Virus record (IMG/VR): IMGVR_UViG_3300025892_002699
Source: a virus
DNA length: 64,000 bases
Reading direction: 5' to 3' (one strand)
The first letter of the stretch is position 1, and every line of letters starts with the position of its first letter. This document shows positions 28,239 to 39,057 of the stretch, piece by piece. The position numbers were made by a program, and so were the translations under genes. Below the pieces are notes generated by a model. It made no database searches, had not been told where the DNA came from, and saw nothing but the letters and a program-made list of their open reading frames with translations.

Positions 28239-29087
28239 ATGGATTATTATAAAACACTAGGCGTCAACAGAAACGCATCCGAAACAGAAATCAAACAGGC
28301 ATACAAAAAGCAAGCCATGAAACATCATCCAGACAAAGGTGGAAATGGCACAGAGTTTCAAAAAATTAATGAAGCATATGACACACTTAAAAATCCTCAA
28401 AAGAAAACACACTATGATAGATTTGGTACTAGTCCAGGAATGAATCAAGGCGGTAATCGTTCATATGAATTCAGATCAGATGATTTTCCACAAGACATAG
28501 GAGATGTGTTTAATCAATTTTTCGGTGGAGGAGGCAGTCCATTTAGAAGACCACAAGCACAAAGAAAAAATAGAGACATCATCATAGAAGCACAAATAGA
28601 ACTTGAAGATGTTTTAAAAGGAAAAGAATTAGTGGCTTCTTACAGATTAACTAATGGTCGTGAACAAAGTGTAAATTTAACTTTGCCTAAAGGTATTGAA
28701 AACAACAGCACAATTAAATTTCCTTCACTAGGAGATGATTTACAAAAAAGTCTACCTAGAGGAGATTTACTTGTTAGAATTAAAATTAGACCACATGCCA
28801 AATGGGCAAGAGATGGTATCAACTTGCATTGTATTGAAAGAGTCAATGTGTTTGATTTAATGCTAGGCACAAAACAAACTATTAAGACATTAGAAGGAAG
28901 AAACTTGGCAATATCAGTTCCTAAAGGCACACAACCAGGCACTGTGTTAAGTGTAAGTGAACAAGGATTACCCACTAGAGGTGGACGCAGAGGCAATATA
29001 TATTTGACAATACAAGCAGACATACCATCTGTCAGCAAACAAGAATGGGTAGAAACATTAACTAGGATTCGAAATGAAATTAATTAA
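28239..29087 (+). CDS. dnaJ: DnaJ-class chaperone (type II, CbpA-like, no Zn finger)
   Basis: J-domain with HPD (KHHPDKGG), a G/F-rich linker and the C-terminal GDLLVRI domain. Confidence 0.92.
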   Translation: MDYYKTLGVNRNASETEIKQAYKKQAMKHHPDKGGNGTEFQKINEAYDTLKNPQKKTHYDRFGTSPGMNQGGNRSYEFRSDDFPQDIGDVFNQFFGGGGSPFRRPQAQRKNRDIIIEAQIELEDVLKGKELVASYRLTNGREQSVNLTLPKGIENNSTIKFPSLGDDLQKSLPRGDLLVRIKIRPHAKWARDGINLHCIERVNVFDLMLGTKQTIKTLEGRNLAISVPKGTQPGTVLSVSEQGLPTRGGRRGNIYLTIQADIPSVSKQEWVETLTRIRNEIN

Positions 29088-29565
29088 AGCACCAGACGAT
29101 TTTTTAGAAAAGAAAGTTAACGATTTTGATTTTAATCAAATGGATGCTGAGAAAATATCTTCAGAAATGTTTGATATAATGAAAAAATATGAAGGTGTTG
29201 GACTTGCCGCAAACCAAGTAGGCATAGACGCACAAATCTTTATCATGGGAGAAGATAAACCCATGACCATTATCAATCCTTTGGTAACAGAAGTCAGCAC
29301 AAATCAAGTGGAAATGATGGAAGGTTGTTTAAGTTTTCCTGGATTGTTTATGAAAGTAAAAAGACCAGACACAGTGGCAGTGAAATACCTTGACACACAA
29401 CAAAAAGAATGTATAATAAAGTTAGAAGGTTTTCATGCAAGAGTATTTCTTCATGAATACGACCATCTTCAAGGCATTACCTTTGATCAAAGAGTTTCAA
29501 AAATGCGTTTGGATATGGCAAGAAAGAAACAAGAAAAAATATTAAAAGGATTTATAAATGGTTGA
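29074..29565 (+). CDS. def: Peptide deformylase
   Basis: GVGLAANQVG, EGCLS and HEYDH motifs. Confidence 0.95.
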   Translation: MKLIKAPDDFLEKKVNDFDFNQMDAEKISSEMFDIMKKYEGVGLAANQVGIDAQIFIMGEDKPMTIINPLVTEVSTNQVEMMEGCLSFPGLFMKVKRPDTVAVKYLDTQQKECIIKLEGFHARVFLHEYDHLQGITFDQRVSKMRLDMARKKQEKILKGFING

Positions 29566-31807
29566 ACCTAGCAGTGCTTTACAAAGTGTTTTTGATAGAG
29601 CAGTAAAATTATCTAAATCTTATACGCATGAATATGTAACACTTGAACATATGTTGTATTCTATGTGTGAAGATGAAAAATTTTGTAATATCTTAAAAGG
29701 ATATGGCACAGATGTGGATAATTTAAAGAATCATTTAATAACGTATTTGGATAATAAATTAGATGGGATTAAATTAAAAGTTACCAAATTTAAACCTAAA
29801 AAAACTATCAGTGTTGAAAGAGTTCTCAACAGAGCATTTACACAAGTTTTATTCAGTGGTAGAACAAACATAGACTTAACAGATGTATTTTTAAGTTTAA
29901 TGAGTGAATCAAAAAGTTGGGCATACTATTATCTAGTTGAAGCAAAAGTTGATAAAGATAAGTTTATGGATTATCTACACAGCGAAATTGAAGAAATATA
30001 TGAAGATGAAGTTGATCAAAGTGAAACTAAAAGAGCACTTAACAAATACACATCAAACTTAAATGCCGAAGTTAAGAAGAAAAAAATTGATCCTGTAATA
30101 GGAAGAATTGATGAGTTAAATCAGATAGCATTAACCATTGGACGTAGAATGAAGAACAATGTTATACTTGTAGGTGATCCAGGTGTTGGTAAAACTGCGA
30201 TAGCAGAAGGATTAGCATTCAATATTGTGAATGAAACTTGTCCGGAATTTTTAAAAGGATATGAAGTGTACAATCTAGACATAGGTGCAATGTTGGCTGG
30301 ATCTAAATATCGAGGAGATTTTGAAGAAAGATTCAAAATGGTATTGAACGGATTGAAGAAAAAAGGCAAAGCAATATGTTTTATAGATGAAGCACACAAT
30401 ATTTCAGGTGCAGGTGCAGGTGGTGGCGGAAACACTGCTAATGACTTGGCTAACCTTTTAAAACCAGTTTTAACAAAAGGAGAACTTAAAGTGGTTGCTT
30501 CTACAACTTGGGAAGAATACAGAAAGTACTTCGAAAAAGACAGAGCATTAATGAGACGTTTTGCTAGAATAACTGTGGACGAGCCTGACAAAACAACTTC
30601 ATTAGAAATATTACAAGGACTTAAAAAGTATTACGAAGAATATCATAATGCAACAATAACAGATGATGCAATTTCTTCTGCTGTAAAATTAAGTGTAAAG
30701 TATCAAACAGATAAAAAACTGCCAGATAAAGCAATAGATTTAATCGACCTTGCTTGTTCACGTTTTAATTTGATAGAGAAACAATCAGATAGGATTGTTA
30801 ACGATGAAGCAATTCAATACGAACTGTCCAAGTTGGTGAAAATGCCTGTAGAAAATATTGCAGAAAAAGAATCCAGTAACCTTGCTAATTTGTCTAAAAA
30901 TATGAAAGCCAATGTGTATGGACAAGATGACGCAATAGACATGGTTGTAGACAAAGTGTTAGTTGCTCAAGCAGGACTTAAACGTGACAACAAGCCTATT
31001 GGTTCATTTGTATTCATGGGTCCTACCGGCTGTGGTAAAACAGAAACTGCCAAACAACTGTCTGAACAACTGGGTGTAAAATTAATTAGATTTGATATGT
31101 CAGAATATCAAGAAAAACATGCAGTGGCAAAACTTATTGGTTCGCCTCCAGGATATGTAGGTTTTGAAGAGAACACAGGATTGTTGGTAACAAAATTACA
31201 AGAAAATCCAAACTGTGTGTTATTGTTGGATGAAATAGAAAAAGCCCATCCAGATGTATCGCAAATATTATTACAGATCATGGACGAAGGATCAATTCAA
31301 GGTAACAATGGTAAAACAGCAAGTGCTAAAAACATAGTGCTTGTTCTAACTACTAACCTTGGTGCTGAAGAAAATGAAAAAAATGTAATGGGATTCGGTG
31401 CAGTGAAAGATTCTACATATGATGATAAGGATATCAAACGTTATTTTGCTCCTGAATTTAGAAATAGACTAGATGGCACAGTTGTATTCAAGAAACTTGC
31501 TAAAGAAGTTTTGATCAAAATTGTTGGTAAGTTTATGCTAGAGTTGAAAACTCAATTGAAAGAAAAAGATGTGGCATTAGAACTTACAGATGAAGCCATA
31601 GATTATCTAGTAGAAAATGGGTATGATGATAAAATGGGTGCTAGACCTATGCAAAGATTAATAGATAATAAGATCAAAAAAGACCTTTCAAAAGAATTAC
31701 TGTTTGGATCGCTAAAAAATGGTGGTGTCGTTAAGGTCACAGTTAAAGATAAAAAATTGGCTTTGGACGTTGGCGATGGTGTCAAACTGCTTGAAAAACA
31801 AGCCTAA
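29558..31807 (+). CDS. clpA: ATP-dependent Clp protease ATPase subunit ClpA
   Basis: Clp N-domain; two AAA modules (GDPGVGKT, GPTGCGKT); KLPDKAIDLID; no ClpB middle domain. Confidence 0.92.
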   Translation: MVEPSSALQSVFDRAVKLSKSYTHEYVTLEHMLYSMCEDEKFCNILKGYGTDVDNLKNHLITYLDNKLDGIKLKVTKFKPKKTISVERVLNRAFTQVLFSGRTNIDLTDVFLSLMSESKSWAYYYLVEAKVDKDKFMDYLHSEIEEIYEDEVDQSETKRALNKYTSNLNAEVKKKKIDPVIGRIDELNQIALTIGRRMKNNVILVGDPGVGKTAIAEGLAFNIVNETCPEFLKGYEVYNLDIGAMLAGSKYRGDFEERFKMVLNGLKKKGKAICFIDEAHNISGAGAGGGGNTANDLANLLKPVLTKGELKVVASTTWEEYRKYFEKDRALMRRFARITVDEPDKTTSLEILQGLKKYYEEYHNATITDDAISSAVKLSVKYQTDKKLPDKAIDLIDLACSRFNLIEKQSDRIVNDEAIQYELSKLVKMPVENIAEKESSNLANLSKNMKANVYGQDDAIDMVVDKVLVAQAGLKRDNKPIGSFVFMGPTGCGKTETAKQLSEQLGVKLIRFDMSEYQEKHAVAKLIGSPPGYVGFEENTGLLVTKLQENPNCVLLLDEIEKAHPDVSQILLQIMDEGSIQGNNGKTASAKNIVLVLTTNLGAEENEKNVMGFGAVKDSTYDDKDIKRYFAPEFRNRLDGTVVFKKLAKEVLIKIVGKFMLELKTQLKEKDVALELTDEAIDYLVENGYDDKMGARPMQRLIDNKIKKDLSKELLFGSLKNGGVVKVTVKDKKLALDVGDGVKLLEKQA

Positions 31808-31842: not shown

Positions 31843-32196
31843 ATGCCAGCAACAAGCGAAATAATATTGTCAGCAACAACACATCCGGGAGATAGTACGG
31901 TTGAAACAGTTGTGAGTGAAAAATTCAAAGGTGACGGTTATTATGGTAGATCAGATGGATTTCACACTGTGCAAATCAATGTAAATGGAGTTGCAGGAAC
32001 AGTTCAAATACAAGGTACATTAGCAACCACACCAGCAACTGCTGATTGGTTCAATATAGACGGTGCTTTGTACGACAGTCAAACTGCTGGTAAAGACGGT
32101 GCCTTTGTGTATAATTTTACAGGAAATTTTGTTTGGATAAGAGCAAGTATTTCTTATACCGACGGAACAATTAACAACATATTATTAAATCATTAA
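31843..32196 (+). CDS. Hypothetical beta-rich virion-type protein
   Basis: VQIQGTLATTP...WF and GNFVWIRA segments. Confidence 0.7.
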   Translation: MPATSEIILSATTHPGDSTVETVVSEKFKGDGYYGRSDGFHTVQINVNGVAGTVQIQGTLATTPATADWFNIDGALYDSQTAGKDGAFVYNFTGNFVWIRASISYTDGTINNILLNH

Positions 32197-32199
32197 ACT

Positions 32200-32787
32200 A
32201 TGCATCATTATATTAACATTATTAAAGATACACCTTTTACAGAAGACGAAATTAATACAGCAATCAATTTAAGCACAATTGGTTTATTGGAAGACGAAAC
32301 AAAATATATCACATACGAAAACACTGAAGGACAACATGTGTTAACTGTTGAACTACATAGACAATTAGATGTAGTAGAATCTGATGATTTTGTGGAAGAT
32401 TTAGAATTAGTTTACAATAAACAAGGACTAAAAGATTACGTGGTTGAAGTGAGTGACAATGATCCTATGGAAGAAACATACAATGGTGATGATTTTTTTG
32501 AAGCATACGGAGACATGTGGTTTGATGAAGATGAGTCATTAGACGAAGCAGAATATCAAGGACGTAAAGTTAAACTTGGTAAACCAATGCAAGGTGATGT
32601 AAAAAAATTTAAAGTGTATGTTCGTGATCCAAAAACTAAAAATGTTAAAAAAGTTAATTTTGGTGATCCAAACATGAGAATTAAAAAATCAAATCCTGCA
32701 AGACGTAGAAGTTTTAGAGCAAGACATAATTGTGCTAATCCTGGTCCAAGAACAAAAGCAAGATATTGGAGTTGTAGAAAATGGTAA
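32200..32787 (+). CDS. Hypothetical protein: acidic N-domain plus basic Cys-containing C-module after LDEAE
   Basis: Sharp switch from acidic to basic at SLDEAEYQG. Confidence 0.75.
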   Translation: MHHYINIIKDTPFTEDEINTAINLSTIGLLEDETKYITYENTEGQHVLTVELHRQLDVVESDDFVEDLELVYNKQGLKDYVVEVSDNDPMEETYNGDDFFEAYGDMWFDEDESLDEAEYQGRKVKLGKPMQGDVKKFKVYVRDPKTKNVKKVNFGDPNMRIKKSNPARRRSFRARHNCANPGPRTKARYWSCRKW

Positions 32788-33086
32788 GACTGAACGAATT
32801 CAATCAAATAGAACAAGAACCTAAATTAGATTATGATCTAATGGATGACATGTATTTCTATGCAATAAATGATGACGATTTTTATAGAAAAAATTACTAC
32901 CCTGTAATGAACAAGTGTAAGCAAACTGGTGACAACGAAGGTGTTATGCCTTTAATTGATTCTTTAATTAATGCATATTGCACCAAGTACAAAATTCCAA
33001 AACAATTAGCAGATCAAATAACTACTCAAGACAAAACTTTGTTGATGCAAAGAATGATGGACGCCGAAAAAGAAAATGAGGAATAA
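32781..33086 (+). CDS. Probable internal head protein
   Basis: N-terminus MVRLNEF resembles a capsid-targeting sequence. Confidence 0.6.
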   Translation: MVRLNEFNQIEQEPKLDYDLMDDMYFYAINDDDFYRKNYYPVMNKCKQTGDNEGVMPLIDSLINAYCTKYKIPKQLADQITTQDKTLLMQRMMDAEKENEE

Positions 33087-33088
33087 TC

Positions 33089-33664
33089 ATGTTGATCACG
33101 GAGATAGTAGAAGCACCAAATAAGACTGCGGCGTTTGCCTTTGGCAGAATGAATCCACCAACAGCAGGACACAAAAAAATTGGAGAAGTGATCAAAGCAC
33201 AACCAGGTGATCCTTTTATCTTTATCACTCACACTCAAAACGCAAAAACTGATCCTTTATCATTTGCACAAAAATTAACCTTTGCTCAAAAAATGTTTCC
33301 CATGATTAAAGTAGGAGACACAGCAGTGCGAACATGGGTACAAGCCATGCAGAAATTAGAACAAATGGGATATACAGATATCATCTATGTGGCAGGTTCT
33401 GACAGGGTAAATCAATTCAATGAATTGCTGAACAAATACAATGGCAAAGAATACAATTTCAATTCAATAAAAGTGGTGAGTGCAGGTGAAAGAGATCCGG
33501 ATGCACAAGGTCTAGAAGGCATGAGTGCTTCTAAAATGCGTGATTTAGCCGCTCGTGGAGACAAAAAAACTTTTATAAATGCTGTTCCTATTGACCCTAA
33601 AACAGCAGAAGAGATGTATAATCAAGTGAGAACAGGACTCAAACTAAATCCTGTAACTGTATAA
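33089..33664 (+). CDS. Cytidylyltransferase-like (HxGH) nucleotidyltransferase with CTS-like N-terminus
   Basis: FGRMNPPTAGH, VAGSDR and MSASKMR motifs; starts MLITEIVEA. Confidence 0.82.
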   Translation: MLITEIVEAPNKTAAFAFGRMNPPTAGHKKIGEVIKAQPGDPFIFITHTQNAKTDPLSFAQKLTFAQKMFPMIKVGDTAVRTWVQAMQKLEQMGYTDIIYVAGSDRVNQFNELLNKYNGKEYNFNSIKVVSAGERDPDAQGLEGMSASKMRDLAARGDKKTFINAVPIDPKTAEEMYNQVRTGLKLNPVTV

Positions 33665-33676
33665 AACAATATAAAT

Positions 33677-33886
33677 ATGAATATAAGTGATTTAAAACGT
33701 TTAGCAGGCATTGGCACAGACAACAATGAACCGTCTATGGGCGAAAACATTAGTCAAACTGCTACTGCTTTAAAACAAAAAGAAAGAAAACTAGGCTTAA
33801 AGCCAGGTGATCAAGATTGGTTTAAATTATGGTTCTCAAAACCATACATGACTGGCCCTGTAAAGTTTAGAGGTAGAAAGAAATGA
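33677..33886 (+). CDS. Probable internal head protein
   Basis: MNISDLKRLAGI N-terminus. Confidence 0.65.
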   Translation: MNISDLKRLAGIGTDNNEPSMGENISQTATALKQKERKLGLKPGDQDWFKLWFSKPYMTGPVKFRGRKK

Positions 33887-35868
33887 AATTAAGAGATTTA
33901 TTTGTAGTAGAATTTAAAATAGCAAATCAACCTGATCCAAAAGACAGAGATGATTACAAAGCCAAAATGGCTTCATTACAAGACATTCAAAAAGATCCTA
34001 AAATGGCTGATGCTAGAACGCAGGCGGTGATAGCCAAAAGGAAAGAAGAATTACGTAGATGGGCTGAGAAAAATTTAAGAACAGAAGACAATGTTCAAGA
34101 AAGAATGCCAGCATCAGTTATCAAAAGCAAACAAAGATATGCAGATATGACTGACCAAGAACTTGCAGATAGATTTAAAGATTCAGATGAAAAAACTTTA
34201 AGACAGATGGCTTGGAGACACGGCTATGGCAATATGAGTTCACACTATTTTGATAGAGTTCAAAAAGGCAAATCTCAAACAGAAGATGGTGTACAGCCTA
34301 CAGATATGAAAAGAATGGGTGCAGAAACTAAAACATTGTACGTTCACAAAGATGGTAAAACAATTATGATTCCAGCAGAACGTGAAAAAGATTTTATTCA
34401 AAAAGGATTCAAAAGATCAGCATTGAGAACAGAAGAAACTAACGAAGGCGAAATGCGTTTAGACAAATCAGCATTTGTTCAAATGTTAGCAGACAAAATT
34501 AAAGAACCTCAAAAAGGACATGGAAGACCAGAGTACGACAACAGACTGTTGGCAAAGATGTACAAATTGATTACAGGTAAAGATGTAGATTTTGAAGGCA
34601 ACAAGTTTACTATCACAATGAATAAACCAACAACTGAAGGAACTTATCTGGATGAAGGTTGGTTAGACACTTTAAAAGCGGCAGGCAGAAAAATTGTTCC
34701 GGATCAAGTCAGAGCATTGTATGATCCAGCAACAGCGGCAAAAGTTCAAGCAGATGATCAAGCAAAAGTTCAAATGGATACTTTATTCAAAGACATTAAC
34801 ACCGTGGCAGGTTTAAATCAAACCGATGTGTCTCAAGGATATCCTGCAGATTTAGTTGTAGCATATTTGAGAAAGTATGTTGCGCCTAAACATCCTGATG
34901 CATTTAAAAGAATGGATGCTCAAGGAGATTTAAAAAAAATGTTTCCAGCAGGACAAAAAATAAGTTCAGGTACGTTAAAAGGAAATTTAAATAAAGTTGC
35001 TGTCGAACTTGGTAAAGTAAATTTAAGTCCAGATCAAGGACAACAACCTACACAACAACCTACACAACAACCTCAATTAGTTCCGGCTTCTATGGACAAT
35101 GAAGAAACAGTTTCAGAAGAGGCACCGTTTGGATCAGGCATGGATCTTGTGAGAATGGCTGTGATGAGAAAATTTATATCAGCAGAAGAATATACGGCTT
35201 ACGCAAAAGAATTAAAAGCGGCGGGAGAGGAAGTAGAACAAGAATATGATGATTGGCCAGATGGAGAAGGATTTGGTTCATCAGATGGAAACTTTGCTAT
35301 TAAAGATTTAATGGGAAAAGCAGGCTACGAGTTTGACGAGCAGGATAAAGGCGGTAGGTTCATAGTCACAAAGATGCCTGAGAAATTAGAAAAGATGGGC
35401 ATTAAAAATGTAAGAATGAAAGATGCAGTTGCAACTGAAGATTCAGTTAAAGAAGGTGCATCAATGATTCCTTATTTTAAAACTGAAAAAGATTTTGATG
35501 GAGAGAAAACTACTGTGTATGAATTTCCAATGGCTTGGGCAAAAGATAAAGAGTTGGATACTCCTTACTTGAGTAACGCCAGCATGAGACAATTTTTAAT
35601 GGATCTTGGTTACGGTGGCGACTTTGAGAATATGAGTGCTGTGCCTGTGGAAGAATTTATTGCTGTAACAACACAATGGTTGCAAAAGAATATAGATAAA
35701 AAATCGCCAGAAGAACCAACCACAATAGATAAAAATCCAGATGGGCCAACCATGATATCAGGTGGTAAACCAGAAGGTTACATGAATAGGCAAGTGAAAC
35801 TCCACAACGAACTTGCTAGAAAAATTAAACAAAAATATCCAGAAGTCACGCATTTAGGTTTCAATTAA
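33883..35868 (+). CDS. Modular internal-head polyprotein candidate (661 aa)
   Basis: MKLRDLFVVEF start and repeated xTE(D/E/G) linkers separating unrelated blocks. Confidence 0.65.
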   Translation: MKLRDLFVVEFKIANQPDPKDRDDYKAKMASLQDIQKDPKMADARTQAVIAKRKEELRRWAEKNLRTEDNVQERMPASVIKSKQRYADMTDQELADRFKDSDEKTLRQMAWRHGYGNMSSHYFDRVQKGKSQTEDGVQPTDMKRMGAETKTLYVHKDGKTIMIPAEREKDFIQKGFKRSALRTEETNEGEMRLDKSAFVQMLADKIKEPQKGHGRPEYDNRLLAKMYKLITGKDVDFEGNKFTITMNKPTTEGTYLDEGWLDTLKAAGRKIVPDQVRALYDPATAAKVQADDQAKVQMDTLFKDINTVAGLNQTDVSQGYPADLVVAYLRKYVAPKHPDAFKRMDAQGDLKKMFPAGQKISSGTLKGNLNKVAVELGKVNLSPDQGQQPTQQPTQQPQLVPASMDNEETVSEEAPFGSGMDLVRMAVMRKFISAEEYTAYAKELKAAGEEVEQEYDDWPDGEGFGSSDGNFAIKDLMGKAGYEFDEQDKGGRFIVTKMPEKLEKMGIKNVRMKDAVATEDSVKEGASMIPYFKTEKDFDGEKTTVYEFPMAWAKDKELDTPYLSNASMRQFLMDLGYGGDFENMSAVPVEEFIAVTTQWLQKNIDKKSPEEPTTIDKNPDGPTMISGGKPEGYMNRQVKLHNELARKIKQKYPEVTHLGFN

Positions 35869-36593
35869 TGCGTATTTTGGAACTAAATTCCAATATTGAC
35901 AAATACAACAAAAAGTTGTATAATGAAGATATGGAAACGAAACCAATTGTGTATCTAGACATGGACGGAGTTATGGCAGACTTCTTTGGTGGTATCGAAA
36001 AACTGTACGGTGTTGCACACTGGAAAGAACTTACATCAGATAGAACCAAAGACTTGAAAGCAGAAGTGATTGAAAAAATTACTGGCACAAACTTTTTTGA
36101 AACTTTACCTAAATTTACAAGTGCAGATCAATTGATTAAAATGGTTAAAGAATTCACAGGTGGAACTTTTTCAATTTGTTCTTCACCATTAAGAGGCGAC
36201 AATGCCAATTCAGCAAAATGGAAAAAAGTATGGATCAACAAAAACATTGAACAGCCTCAAGAAACAATTATTACTGGTAGAAAAGAATCTTATGCTGTAA
36301 ACAAGCAAACCAAACAGCCCAACATATTGATAGATGACAGACCAATCAATATTCAAAAATGGAACAGTGCTGGTGGATTTGGAATACTGTATCAAGCCAA
36401 CAGAGATTCATTAAGCAAGATCAAAACAGAATTAGAAGCATACACACAGCAACATCAAACAAAACAGGAAGGTGTTGGAATTATCACCAAACAAAACACA
36501 ACCGCAGATGTTAAGCCTGGCGAAACACAACGTCAAGCGGCAAAGTTTGGATTCAAAATAGATAAAAAAGGTAATCCACCTAGATTAAGATGA
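35868..36593 (+). CDS. 5'(3')-deoxyribonucleotidase-like HAD hydrolase with CTS-like extension; internal start at 35931
   Basis: YLDMDGVMADF and LIDD motifs; N-terminal MRILEL. Confidence 0.82.
   Translation: MRILELNSNIDKYNKKLYNEDMETKPIVYLDMDGVMADFFGGIEKLYGVAHWKELTSDRTKDLKAEVIEKITGTNFFETLPKFTSADQLIKMVKEFTGGTFSICSSPLRGDNANSAKWKKVWINKNIEQPQETIITGRKESYAVNKQTKQPNILIDDRPINIQKWNSAGGFGILYQANRDSLSKIKTELEAYTQQHQTKQEGVGIITKQNTTADVKPGETQRQAAKFGFKIDKKGNPPRLR
35896..35924 (+). promoter_or_regulatory. Perfect sigma70 promoter TTGACA-N17-TATAAT embedded in the CDS
   Basis: The -10 box ends 6 nt before the in-frame ATG at 35931. Confidence 0.8.
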
Positions 36594-37585
36594 AACTGAG
36601 AGACATCATTGGCGAATTCATAATCATGCCTCAAACCATCAAGCCTCAAGGTTTGATTCATAAAAAAGGCACAGGCCCAAACAACAGGTTTGATTTCAAG
36701 AACAAGGGTAACAACAGAGCCAACGAAAACAAAATAAAACTGTCAACAGACCCAAAATATTTTGGTGCAATCGGCGTGGAAAAATACAAAGCCACAGGCC
36801 CACAAGTCAACATTCCTATTAAACAATTGGTTGGGTTCGAACCCGAAGACAAGATGAGAGACCCTAAGAGCATGGCCAAAGTGGATCAAATAGCAAAGGC
36901 TGTACAAAGTAAAAAACCCATGGGACCTATACTTGCAAGAAAATACAAGAACGGTTACCAGGTCATCGATGGACACCATCGTTTCTGGGGACATAGGAAA
37001 GCAGGTGCCGATTCCATAAAGGCACAAATTGTTCCACCTCAAGACATAGAAGAAGAGGCTGAATTCCTAGAAAACATTGATCCAAAAGTGTGGACTGAAC
37101 TACGGGCAAAAGGACTCGTGAGGCCAATGCACTTTGATAGTCCCGAGGTCAGAGCGGCATACAAAGAAAAAGGACTACCTTACAAACCCGACATCAGTAT
37201 TATCACCAAAGATAACTTGGATCAGTTTAGAACAAAAGAGCCGGAGAGATTAAAACAATTGAAACCAATCCAAGTAAGTGATCAGCAGTGGATTAATTAC
37301 ATGGATAAGTGGTGGAGGACTGAAAGGTTGAAACCTAAGGCAAAAGATAAAGTGCAACAGATAAAAAATGCCTATAAACTTTTATATAAAAAAGATATGG
37401 TGGAGAACTTCGCAGACGGTAAGAAAAAGGGCAAAAGCAGACCAGGCAGAGTAAAGAAGTCAGGTGCCAGTTGCAATGGTAGTGTAACATCATTGCGTAA
37501 GAAGGCTAAAAACGCATCCGGAGAGAAGGCTAAGATGTATCATTGGTGTGCTAACATGAAGTCTGGCAGAGCAAAATCTAAATAA
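36590..37585 (+). CDS. ParB/Srx-domain protein with CTS-like N-terminus and basic C-module
   Basis: YQVIDGHHR motif; MKLRDIIGEF start; MVENFADGKK...HWCANMK module. Confidence 0.75.
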   Translation: MKLRDIIGEFIIMPQTIKPQGLIHKKGTGPNNRFDFKNKGNNRANENKIKLSTDPKYFGAIGVEKYKATGPQVNIPIKQLVGFEPEDKMRDPKSMAKVDQIAKAVQSKKPMGPILARKYKNGYQVIDGHHRFWGHRKAGADSIKAQIVPPQDIEEEAEFLENIDPKVWTELRAKGLVRPMHFDSPEVRAAYKEKGLPYKPDISIITKDNLDQFRTKEPERLKQLKPIQVSDQQWINYMDKWWRTERLKPKAKDKVQQIKNAYKLLYKKDMVENFADGKKKGKSRPGRVKKSGASCNGSVTSLRKKAKNASGEKAKMYHWCANMKSGRAKSK

Positions 37586-37588
37586 ATA
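37582..37588 (+). promoter_or_regulatory. Late-type promoter ATAAATA
   Basis: Overlaps the stop codon; GAGGA SD downstream. Confidence 0.5.
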
Positions 37589-37612
37589 AACACAAACAAA
37601 GAGGAATAAACA

Positions 37613-37855
37613 ATGGCTGAATTTATAGAAAGATTAATTGAAGCACGTGACTCAAAAACAGGTTGGGTACAAGAAACTGCTTCTTCAATGCTATCATTAA
37701 AACGTAGATTTGAAAATGGTGATATTACAGAAGCAAAATACATCGCAGGCTTAGATGCATTAAAATCTGGTGATAATGAAGTTGGATCAGGTGGTAGTTA
37801 TAATGAACGAGCAATCGTTGATAATGGTATTATCTGTCTAAAAGAATTAATTTAA
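37613..37855 (+). CDS. Hypothetical protein
   Basis: SD present; starts MAEFIERLIEAR. Confidence 0.7.
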   Translation: MAEFIERLIEARDSKTGWVQETASSMLSLKRRFENGDITEAKYIAGLDALKSGDNEVGSGGSYNERAIVDNGIICLKELI

Positions 37856-37859
37856 TATT

Positions 37860-37952
37860 ATGTGGAAAAAAGCAAAGAAAAAATTAAAAACGTGGTACAC
37901 TTGTTCTAAAGTAAGTTTACTTGTAGACAAAATTAAGAAAAAATTCAAGTAG
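37860..37952 (+). CDS. 30-aa Lys-rich peptide, not in the ORF track
   Basis: MWKKAKKKLKTWYTCSKVSLLVDKIKKKFK; fills the gap between neighbours exactly. Confidence 0.5.
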   Translation: MWKKAKKKLKTWYTCSKVSLLVDKIKKKFK

Positions 37953-37953
37953 T

Positions 37954-38136
37954 ATGCGTTATAAGGACATCAAAATGGTGGAGGCTCGTGTGGACTATCA
38001 TTATGGATTGGATCCTGAAATGCTGGTATACACTCACAAGGTGGGCGACATATACGGTAAAAAGAACCTCAAAGTGCCACACGCCAAATACACCACATCT
38101 AAACGTGTTAAAAATTTACACAAAGACGGTAAATAA
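37954..38136 (+). CDS. Probable internal head protein
   Basis: MRYKDIKMVEAR N-terminus. Confidence 0.65.
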   Translation: MRYKDIKMVEARVDYHYGLDPEMLVYTHKVGDIYGKKNLKVPHAKYTTSKRVKNLHKDGK

Positions 38137-38140
38137 TATT

Positions 38141-38371
38141 ATGCGTATCAGAGACATTATATCAGAAGTTGCAACAGCAGGTGCTACATCGGCTGGCAGT
38201 ATTGCAACAGTGGCTAATCCACAAATAGCAATAGGTGATAAAAAAGCACGTGATGCCTATGGCAAAAAAGGTGCTTCTGCAAAACCACCTAAAGCAAAAA
38301 TGCAAAAACCAACTGACAATGCTTTAGATATGAAAGGGACATCGATATTTGGTGCTCCAATAAAGAGATAA
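38141..38371 (+). CDS. Probable internal head protein
   Basis: Start corrected to 38141 (MRIRDIISEVA); GTAAATA at 38129-38135 lies 5 nt upstream. Confidence 0.7.
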   Translation: MRIRDIISEVATAGATSAGSIATVANPQIAIGDKKARDAYGKKGASAKPPKAKMQKPTDNALDMKGTSIFGAPIKR

Positions 38372-38379
38372 ATATTACT

Positions 38380-39057
38380 ATGAAACATTCAGATTTAACA
38401 AAAAAAGACGTTGCTAAAGAAGGTAAAATGCCACAAGCGGCTATTGACGCTCTAGCAAAGAAGAACGGCAAAAGCAACAAAAAAGATTCTAAAAAAGAAG
38501 TACAAACAGAAGACCTAGCACTGATGGCTCAGAAAGCAGAGATGGATCATGAAGTTCAAATGGCAAGATCAGATTTGTACAAAGCGGCAAAATATTCAAT
38601 CAAACTGCACGAACTGTTAAAAAATGTTTCTGAAGAACAAGGTTTAGAAGGTTGGGTAGCGGCTAAGATTACCAAAGCGGCAGATTATTTGAGTTCAGTA
38701 AAACATTACATGGAATATGAAATGATATCTGGACAAGAGACAGCAATGGCTGAACCAACTGAAGCAATAGCAGAAAATATTTGCAAAACGTGTGGTTGTG
38801 ATATTGAAATGCCTAAACCAGCATGTAAATGCACACATGATTACAAAGAATCATTAGCAAACAAATTACAGAATAAATTAAAAGAATCCGCAAAAACTTG
38901 TAAAGAGTGTAACAAACCAACATGGGAAACACTGGATGAAGCAGAAAAGCAAAAAGGTGTTGATGGTAAAGTGTGTTGGAAAGGCTACAAAAGAATGGGC
39001 ACCAAGATGAAGGGTGGCAAAAGAGTAGACAACTGCGTTCCAATTAAGAAAAAATAA
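38380..39057 (+). CDS. Modular protein with Glu linkers and small Cys modules
   Basis: VQTED, IAEN, LKES and LDEAE linkers; CxxC and CWKGY...NCV modules; ATAAATA at 38368-38374. Confidence 0.7.
   Translation: MKHSDLTKKDVAKEGKMPQAAIDALAKKNGKSNKKDSKKEVQTEDLALMAQKAEMDHEVQMARSDLYKAAKYSIKLHELLKNVSEEQGLEGWVAAKITKAADYLSSVKHYMEYEMISGQETAMAEPTEAIAENICKTCGCDIEMPKPACKCTHDYKESLANKLQNKLKESAKTCKECNKPTWETLDEAEKQKGVDGKVCWKGYKRMGTKMKGGKRVDNCVPIKKK

Follow-up and report, generated by a model that had tools for sequence, protein, structure and literature searches.

A run of ten phage genes with a shared N-terminal tag as a probable capsid-cargo locus of a marine jumbo myovirus

Why would adjacent phage genes with unrelated products begin with nearly the same few residues? 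The question is raised by IMG/VR virus record IMGVR_UViG_3300025892_002699, a 64,000-nucleotide stretch of DNA (hereafter the window, meaning that whole stretch) in which ten consecutive + strand genes at 32781-39057 have N-termini of one form, M-[KR]-h-x-[D/E]-h (h, any hydrophobic residue); the pattern usually closes with hydrophobic-x-Glu at residues 8-11. The original prediction likened these N-termini to the capsid-targeting sequence that T4 internal proteins carry and proposed that the phage packages and injects a nucleotidyltransferase, a nucleotidase and a ParB/Srx-domain protein. On balance, we think it probable, from sequence and by analogy, that the cassette serves a marine jumbo myovirus of the T4 superfamily as a locus for internal proteins (capsid cargo).

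To what extent is the likeness of these N-termini more than chance? Our statistics cover the 86 genes of the window, 10 in the cassette and 76 elsewhere. The strict motif M[KR][ILVYFM]x[DE][ILFV] has five matches, all within six consecutive cassette genes (permutation p=5e-6), and is absent from the other 76 genes. A rule set beforehand from T4 sites, [LIVMF]-x-E with the Glu at residues 6-11, is matched by 7/10 cassette genes vs 6/76 others (Fisher p=3e-5). Over residues 2-9 the mean pairwise BLOSUM score is -0.3 for the cassette vs -6.3 +/- 1.2 for random gene sets, and the best-scoring ten-gene run of the window begins exactly at 32781; as a control, residues 13-20 show no excess similarity among the cassette genes. 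The codons of the tag differ between copies and the DNA upstream of the copies is unrelated, which argues for selection on the peptide; on the same grounds, an origin of the tags as a DNA repeat was rejected. All eight N-termini quoted in the original prediction were found at the genes named there (the gene for the 76-residue protein starts at 38141), and the run proved longer by two genes, 37613 (MAEFIERLIEA) and 38380 (MKHSDL). Seven of the ten tags are convincing and three (33677, 37613 and 38380) are weak.

All ten genes lie on the + strand, and a slash marks the putative cut site of each tag. The cassette opens with a 101-residue acidic protein (32781..33086; tag MVRLNEFNQIE, conserved in L003-L007) without a Pfam or PHROG family, followed by a 191-residue (T/H)xGH nucleotidyltransferase (33089..33664; MLITEIVE/AP; PHROG 3041, 5e-51) and a 69-residue basic protein with an isoelectric point (pI) of 10.1, whose start, MNISDL, has the core of the tag and no Glu site (33677..33886). 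Next come a 661-residue modular chain (33883..35868; MKLRDLFVVE/F) with x-T-E-[D/E/G] or D-N-E junctions, a 241-residue NT5C-type 5'-nucleotidase of the HAD family (35868..36593), with MRILEL and a linker some 20 residues long ahead of the domain, and a 331-residue ParB/Srx-domain protein with a DGHHR motif (36590..37585; MKLRDIIGE/F). The 80-residue acidic product of 37613..37855 (MAEFIERLIE/A) is a doubtful member: it has a Glu10, and its relatives read RLVNA or KLINA where that site stands. A 60-residue basic protein (37954..38136; MRYKDIKMVE/A) is 90% identical in the related contig G001 and has an L113 homologue that starts MKIREIVE. A 76-residue basic protein (38141..38371; MRIRDIISE/VATAGATSAGSIATV) belongs to a family kept in L012, L013, L016 and L113, and a 225-residue protein (38380..39057) combines the weak tag MKHSDL with an internal VQTED and a C-terminal basic module, CWKGY...NCVP. 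No known family accounts for the cassette genes other than those of the nucleotidyltransferase, the nucleotidase and the ParB protein. The pI is >8.9 for seven of the ten products, and several genes are translationally coupled through ATGA or TAATG overlaps.

How closely do these tags follow those of T4? We read the T4 sequences directly: IPII and IPIII begin MKTYQEFIAE/A, the IPI tag ends TITE/A, gp24 begins MAKINELLRE/S, gp22 MLKEQLIAE/A and gp67 MEGLIE/A, and the sites of gp21 and gp23 read LLIE/T and FLTE/AEIGG. These are the T4 sequences as read, with cut positions as given in the literature. In the T4 tag, targeting depends on residues 4 and 7, and processing on residues 8 and 10 (PMC9026906). 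MKTYQEFIAE/A reads h4, h7, h8, E10, and the cassette tags read h3, h6, h7, E9 (or E10), with the same h-x-x-h-h spacing in 7/10 genes, mostly shifted by one residue. The tag of gene 32781 comes nearest to the T4 register, having a hydrophobic residue at position 4, Glu6, Phe7 and Glu11. The ends of the cassette tags resemble the sites of the T4 protease gp21, namely IAE/A, ITE/A, LTE/A, LRE/S and LIE/A.

The T4-like cyanophage S-CREM2 offers a case in which tagged enzymes can be compared with a virion proteome. The 52 proteins that mass spectrometry detected in its virions include a cytidylyltransferase, an S-adenosylmethionine (SAM) hydrolase and a kinase, and cytidyltransferases are often detected in cyanophage virions (PMC10665884). 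We found that the S-CREM2 cytidylyltransferase, SAM hydrolase and APH-like kinase start MKNFSSFLTE, MKDFDSFLEE and VKRFDAFLTE, and that open reading frame (ORF) 13 starts MKDLHSFLTE. We called 214-216 ORFs over the record, some 4 kb of it excepted, and each protein that fits a T4-derived pattern is in the virion (3/3 by our own gene calls, p=0.012; 4/4 with the annotated GTG start of ORF14). The ends of these tags, FLTE, are like the site in the S-CREM2 capsid protein, LLTE/A. Homologues of the cassette nucleotidyltransferase in cyanophages and pelagiphages likewise bear a tag of another kind, in T4 register: MKKFSAFLIE in S-CAM8 and MKTLKELL in HTVC008M. A search of the text of the S-CREM2 paper found no mention of a targeting sequence (PMC10665884), our literature search turned up no publication that connects the virion enzymes of cyanophages or marine jumbo phages with a capsid targeting sequence, and the cytidylyltransferase is not listed in a second cyanophage proteome, that of S-SCSM2R. 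As a separate observation, S-CREM2 ORF12 (L092), a virion protein annotated as 'Cas9-like', is untagged at its annotated start, and its residues 17-26, LRFASFMAEA, resemble a tag; they may mark where translation truly starts, or a cleavage site.

Within the jumbo lineage itself, the point of comparison is G010, a 71-kb contig (estimated to be about 20% complete) that encodes a nucleotidyltransferase 54% identical to the product of gene 33089. G010 carries a head module in T4 order, with genes for a portal, a 66-residue protein, a 277-residue acidic protein, an S77 protease, a scaffold and the capsid protein; the 66-residue protein, which occupies the place of gp67, has the start MRFNDL, and the sequence RRYISE/AADAGTT is found in the capsid protein. 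The cassette tags resemble this predicted maturation site of the lineage's own capsid protein, because the 76-residue cassette protein (38141; RDIISE/VATAGATS...) aligns to that very segment, residues 36-56 of the G010 capsid protein, with 11/21 identities (BLASTP E=7e-4 in a single pairwise comparison). This small protein is encoded within the cassette, and its start serves also as its tag.

We compared the window with close relatives (L003-L008 and the 148-kb contig G001, which comprises L101-L102) and with more distant ones (L012, L013, L016 and L113). The close relatives keep the cassette with its tags, and the more distant ones have many genes starting MKINE, MKIRD, MKIKE and similar. Altogether, 41 strict tags stand on at least 14 unrelated families, judged with the tag removed (7 related sources, 506 ORFs), and the tag is kept in orthologues of 45-60% identity. 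Five of the seven genes that match the Glu rule (32781, 33089, 33883, 37954 and 38141) keep the Glu site in relatives; the ParB gene 36590 has shorter versions in close relatives, mostly without the tag Glu. The nucleotidyltransferase has about 120 homologues in metagenomes, almost every one of which opens with M-x-L-x-E-[IL]-x-E-A before the first strand, and most homologues of the nucleotidase are tagged. In addition, G001 carries this tag on two more small gene groups, at 115588-119951 and 135218-135454 (MKIRDIT, MKITEIV, MRLVEF and MKVQDV), so the cassette is not the sole tagged locus of that genome.

The nature of the enzymes bears on what such a label would carry. By sequence and model, the product of gene 33089 belongs to the (T/H)xGH nucleotidyltransferase superfamily (PPAT, NMNAT, cytidylyltransferase): it has the motif PPTAGH at residues 23-28 and invariant S146 and R151, its Pfam match is below the cut-off, and its AlphaFold2 model, with a predicted local distance difference test (pLDDT) score of 88.7, retrieves PPAT and NaMNAT about equally in Foldseek (probability 1.0, template modelling score 0.57-0.69). 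In the model, residues 1-10 are coil (pLDDT 54) and the first beta-strand runs from residue 13; the tag as modelled lies outside the fold and is an add-on to the enzyme. The homologue in PBECO4 starts directly at the first strand, without a tag. The nucleotidase (35868) passes the Pfam cut-off for NT5C (PF06941, 26.5 bits vs 24.8), matches PHROG 2643 (9e-26) and has a DMDGV motif after its linker. Searches against PDB sequences gave weak matches, to mitochondrial deoxyribonucleotidase for the nucleotidase and to ParB for gene 36590 (E only ~0.01). The ParB protein otherwise reaches 23.3 bits for Pfam ParB_N, under the cut-off of 26.3, and matches the ParB-like PHROG 1033 (6e-8). The first two of the three enzyme assignments made in the original prediction therefore stand, and the ParB assignment, below the Pfam cut-off but with the DGHHR motif present, is tentative. 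A PADLOC search gave no meaningful match to a defence system. Many metagenomic relatives (P0036-P0120) fuse a nucleotidyltransferase and an NT5C nucleotidase into a protein of about 388 residues with one tag, starting M[LHY]L[KR]ELFL[KR]ED; because of these fusions, the two enzymes probably act in one pathway.

The nucleotidase gene has a second feature, within the codons for its tag and linker. A perfect TTGACA-N17-TATAAT (12/12; 35896..35933 on the + strand together with the start codon) is followed, 6 nucleotides past TATAAT, by an in-frame ATG at 35931. This predicted promoter shows no synonymous change in L003-L008 and is nearly kept in the distant L113, and its flanks vary. Because the promoter is perfect and conserved and is followed by an in-frame ATG, it suggests that an early, untagged nucleotidase is made beside the tagged, translationally coupled form.

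Signals of late type were also found, as the original prediction had it in placing several cassette genes under late motifs. The late-promoter-like ATAAATA occurs 15 times in the window, always on the + strand (15:0), at sites from 228 to 60354; it is rarer than in shuffled sequence (15 vs 23.8), and nearly all copies lie 5-45 nucleotides 5' of gene starts, those of tail-fibre genes included. Three are in the cassette, on the + strand: 33671..33677 (full TATAAATA from 33670), 37582..37588, which is 25 nucleotides 5' of gene 37613, and 38368..38374, which is 5 nucleotides 5' of gene 38380. At several late genes (240, 13383 and 38380) ATAAATA ends just 5 nucleotides before the ATG, which suggests that their leaders are very short or absent. 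Directly below one such ATAAATA, and adjoining tail-fibre genes, lies a gene (240-794) for a 184-residue protein of no known family that starts MKLEHLTE, with an L-T-E site like that of T4 gp23. Its product may be a further tagged virion protein outside the cassette.

Cut sites may also lie inside the cargo. The relatives of the 661-residue chain (33883) range from 551 to 844 residues in phages that are otherwise about 90% identical, and in their alignment the places where modules are inserted, deleted or relocated all coincide with junctions of the form x-T-E-[D/E/G] or D-N-E. The chain contains five copies of TE[DEG], where 0.47 are expected. The AlphaFold2 model of the chain is poor (pLDDT 44.5), with the junctions in its low-confidence linkers, and an Atlas search with the chain gave no match. 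Cleavage at the x-T-E-[D/E/G] junctions probably divides the chain, one module from the next. In the ParB protein, a C-terminal basic Cys module is preceded by MVE/NFADG; close relatives carry only a 104-residue version of this protein, the module itself is in >595 IMG/VR contigs, and a 67-residue relative consists of a tag ending ITE/NFADG and the module, and nothing else. Similarly, a 134-residue protein in relatives is a tag fused straight to CWKGY, the module at the C-terminus of the product of gene 38380. Such fusions fit units made of a cut site plus a module, to judge by their sequences. Parts of the cassette locus are hypervariable between the phages of about 90% identity. We also note that unrelated proteins end, time and again, in one of three different short basic Cys modules, NFADG...HWC, CWKGY...NCVP and KVNFGD...RYWSC, with positions in the window at 37400-37585 (the ParB C-terminus), 38900-39057 and 32530-32787.

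From what kind of phage does this DNA come? The window has T4-type replication and tail-fibre genes, nearly all on the + strand. Its DNA polymerase is closest to those of the jumbo phages Phosso, Atu_ph07 and 121Q (44-49% identity), and related IMG/VR contigs of 37-148 kb have completeness estimates of just 11-41%. Together, the polymerase affinity and the low completeness of such long relatives lead us to assign the source, as predicted from these sequences, to a jumbo myovirus, marine and uncultured, that belongs to the T4 superfamily and is no ordinary T4-like phage.

Directly 5' of the cassette, at 28239-31807, is a block encoding DnaJ, a peptide deformylase and a ClpA-type ATPase, in an order kept in relatives. 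Agrobacterium phage Atu_ph07 shares this neighbourhood, with the DnaJ-ClpA pair (gp293 and gp292), and the tagged cassette was not found there; G001 additionally encodes DnaK-like and GroEL-like genes. Between this block and the cassette lies a gene for a 117-residue protein (31843-32196) that matches a PHROG annotated as virion structural protein (5.5e-10); its homologue adjoins ClpA in Atu_ph07 (gp290). A second perfect promoter, TTGACA-N16-TATAAT, occurs at 29390-29417 inside the deformylase gene, 140 nucleotides before the ClpA start, and near-perfect TTGACA/TATAAT copies precede DnaJ (28205) and a rubrerythrin-like gene (39765). These three promoters are probably early and read by host sigma-70.

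Taken together, these observations allow a mechanism to be proposed for the cassette, in which proteins made beforehand are probably carried inside the phage capsid; we infer their packaging, cleavage and injection by analogy with T4. Each product would begin with a propeptide of 8-11 residues, whose hydrophobic residues would bind the prohead scaffolding core, and a gp21-type (S77) head protease would cut at its hydrophobic-x-Glu end. The mature, mostly basic proteins would then remain with the capsid DNA and probably enter the host along with it. This cargo would comprise the (T/H)xGH nucleotidyltransferase, the NT5C 5'-nucleotidase, the ParB/Srx protein, several small basic proteins and the 661-residue chain, the last probably cleaved into separate modules at x-T-E-[D/E/G], and the nucleotidase would also be made early, untagged, from its internal promoter. 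A broader version of this proposal is more tentative, and we put it forward as a possibility: that a label mimicking the capsid site loads, in this marine jumbo lineage, a large and fast-changing set of enzymes, DNA-binding modules and a chain of exchangeable modules that the head protease would separate, with at least one enzyme made from nested promoters in two forms, an early untagged one for the cytoplasm and a late tagged one for the next host.

Several observations weigh against reading the locus as capsid cargo. The register of the tags is one residue off that of T4, and a strict T4-register pattern matches no tag other than that of 32781. In genes 33677 and 38380 the Glu site is missing, relatives do not keep that of 37613, and the nucleotidase has the core of the tag without a regular cleavage site. 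The x-T-E junction motif departs from the T4 consensus in having neither Leu nor Ile at P3. No S77 protease or head module was found in the window, the 148-kb relative or five other related fragments; an S77 protease is encoded by Atu_ph07, which the polymerase places among the two closest relatives in culture. Furthermore, abundant non-structural proteins could co-purify with S-CREM2 virions, as the authors of that study point out (PMC10665884). The original prediction is supported in part: reading the tag as capsid-targeting is the best-supported explanation, by its T4 spacing and Glu end, its disordered position ahead of the nucleotidyltransferase fold, its absence from the PBECO4 homologue and the tagged proteins in S-CREM2 virions, and it holds less well for the nucleotidase and two small proteins, which are without a clear cleavage site.

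These tags could serve other ends. They might target the prohead core all the same, with the proteins acting in assembly as core or scaffold accessories or as protease decoys and being degraded or expelled before the DNA is packaged, so that nothing reaches the host. T4 gp22, gp67 and gp68 are core proteins cut by the protease, the G010 protein at the gp67 position has the same core motif, and the 76-residue protein mimics the cleavage region of the capsid protein, all of which would suit such a role. However, a nucleotidyltransferase, a nucleotidase and a ParB protein are improbable as scaffolds, a homologous enzyme was detected by mass spectrometry in mature S-CREM2 virions, and basic, DNA-binding-like C-terminal modules suit retention with the DNA; we regard a role confined to assembly as unlikely. 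It is decidedly unlikely, in our estimation, that the shared N-terminus is instead a signal for another phage factor, either a modifying enzyme or the ClpA-type unfoldase, working with DnaJ and the deformylase in folding or turnover. Clp unfoldases do recognize N-terminal signals, and the conserved chaperone block stands directly upstream; yet Atu_ph07 has the DnaJ-ClpA pair and no tagged cassette, G010 has its tagged nucleotidyltransferase among tail and head genes, away from ClpA, and cyanophages without a chaperone block have tagged homologues in their virions. A signal of this kind would also leave the Glu-ending pattern and the likeness to the capsid site unexplained.

There remains the idea that the likeness has no sorting function and reflects common ancestry of the 5' ends, recombination between gene starts or selection on translation initiation. 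Expressed genes often have Lys or Arg at position 2 and early codons rich in A/T, and the ATGA and TAATG overlaps do couple several of the cassette genes. Against this stand the differing codons and unrelated upstream DNA of the copies, the dissimilarity of residues 13-20, the absence of the motif from the 76 other genes, highly expressed structural ones included, and the retention of the tag in orthologues at 45-60% identity. We consider an N-terminal likeness without function very improbable. Capsid targeting remains the reading that we prefer.

What would it mean if these tags work as they do in T4? The set of injected proteins of abundant uncultured marine jumbo phages would be readable from sequence, and there would be a reason why 'non-structural' enzymes recur in cyanophage virion proteomes. 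A pre-made pair of nucleotidyltransferase and nucleotidase, together with the ParB/Srx protein, would act before any phage gene expression, making these three proteins candidates for early counter-defence or control of the nucleotide pool. The modular chain and the nested promoter would be two arrangements of capsid cargo not described for T4.

Comparison with known systems places the proposed cargo locus more precisely. Like this phage, phiKZ and SPN3US are jumbo phages; they have many head-internal proteins, among them ejection and inner-body proteins, with prohead-protease cleavage after Glu and large precursors processed at multiple sites, features that the proposed cargo locus would share. 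They are of a different lineage with a site consensus of its own, small residue-x-Glu. The titles and abstracts of the papers on them describe no shared ten-residue N-terminal address tag (PMC5694885, PMC7411985, PMC10052503). With S-CREM2 the cassette shares a homologous nucleotidyltransferase family, and the S-CREM2 enzymes were detected in purified virions; in contrast to the cassette, the S-CREM2 tags are in exact T4 register, the genome is 175 kb and the tagged genes are scattered over two loci.

Like the T4 internal proteins, the cassette products are unrelated to one another and mostly basic, begin with a short putative propeptide, show in most cases the h-x-x-h-h-x-Glu spacing, have tags whose predicted ends resemble the capsid-protein cleavage site of their own lineage and come from a locus whose gene content varies between relatives. 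The cassette differs from them in its register, shorter by one residue (h3, h6, h7, E9-10) and having an Asp or Glu as residue 5, and in its number of tagged genes, at least ten compared with three or four in T4. It also differs in its cargo, which includes metabolic-type enzymes and a multi-module chain, and in its setting, a marine jumbo phage known from sequence alone. Judged by these features, the cassette products are probably T4-type capsid-targeted internal proteins, with a variant of the tag that is this lineage's own.

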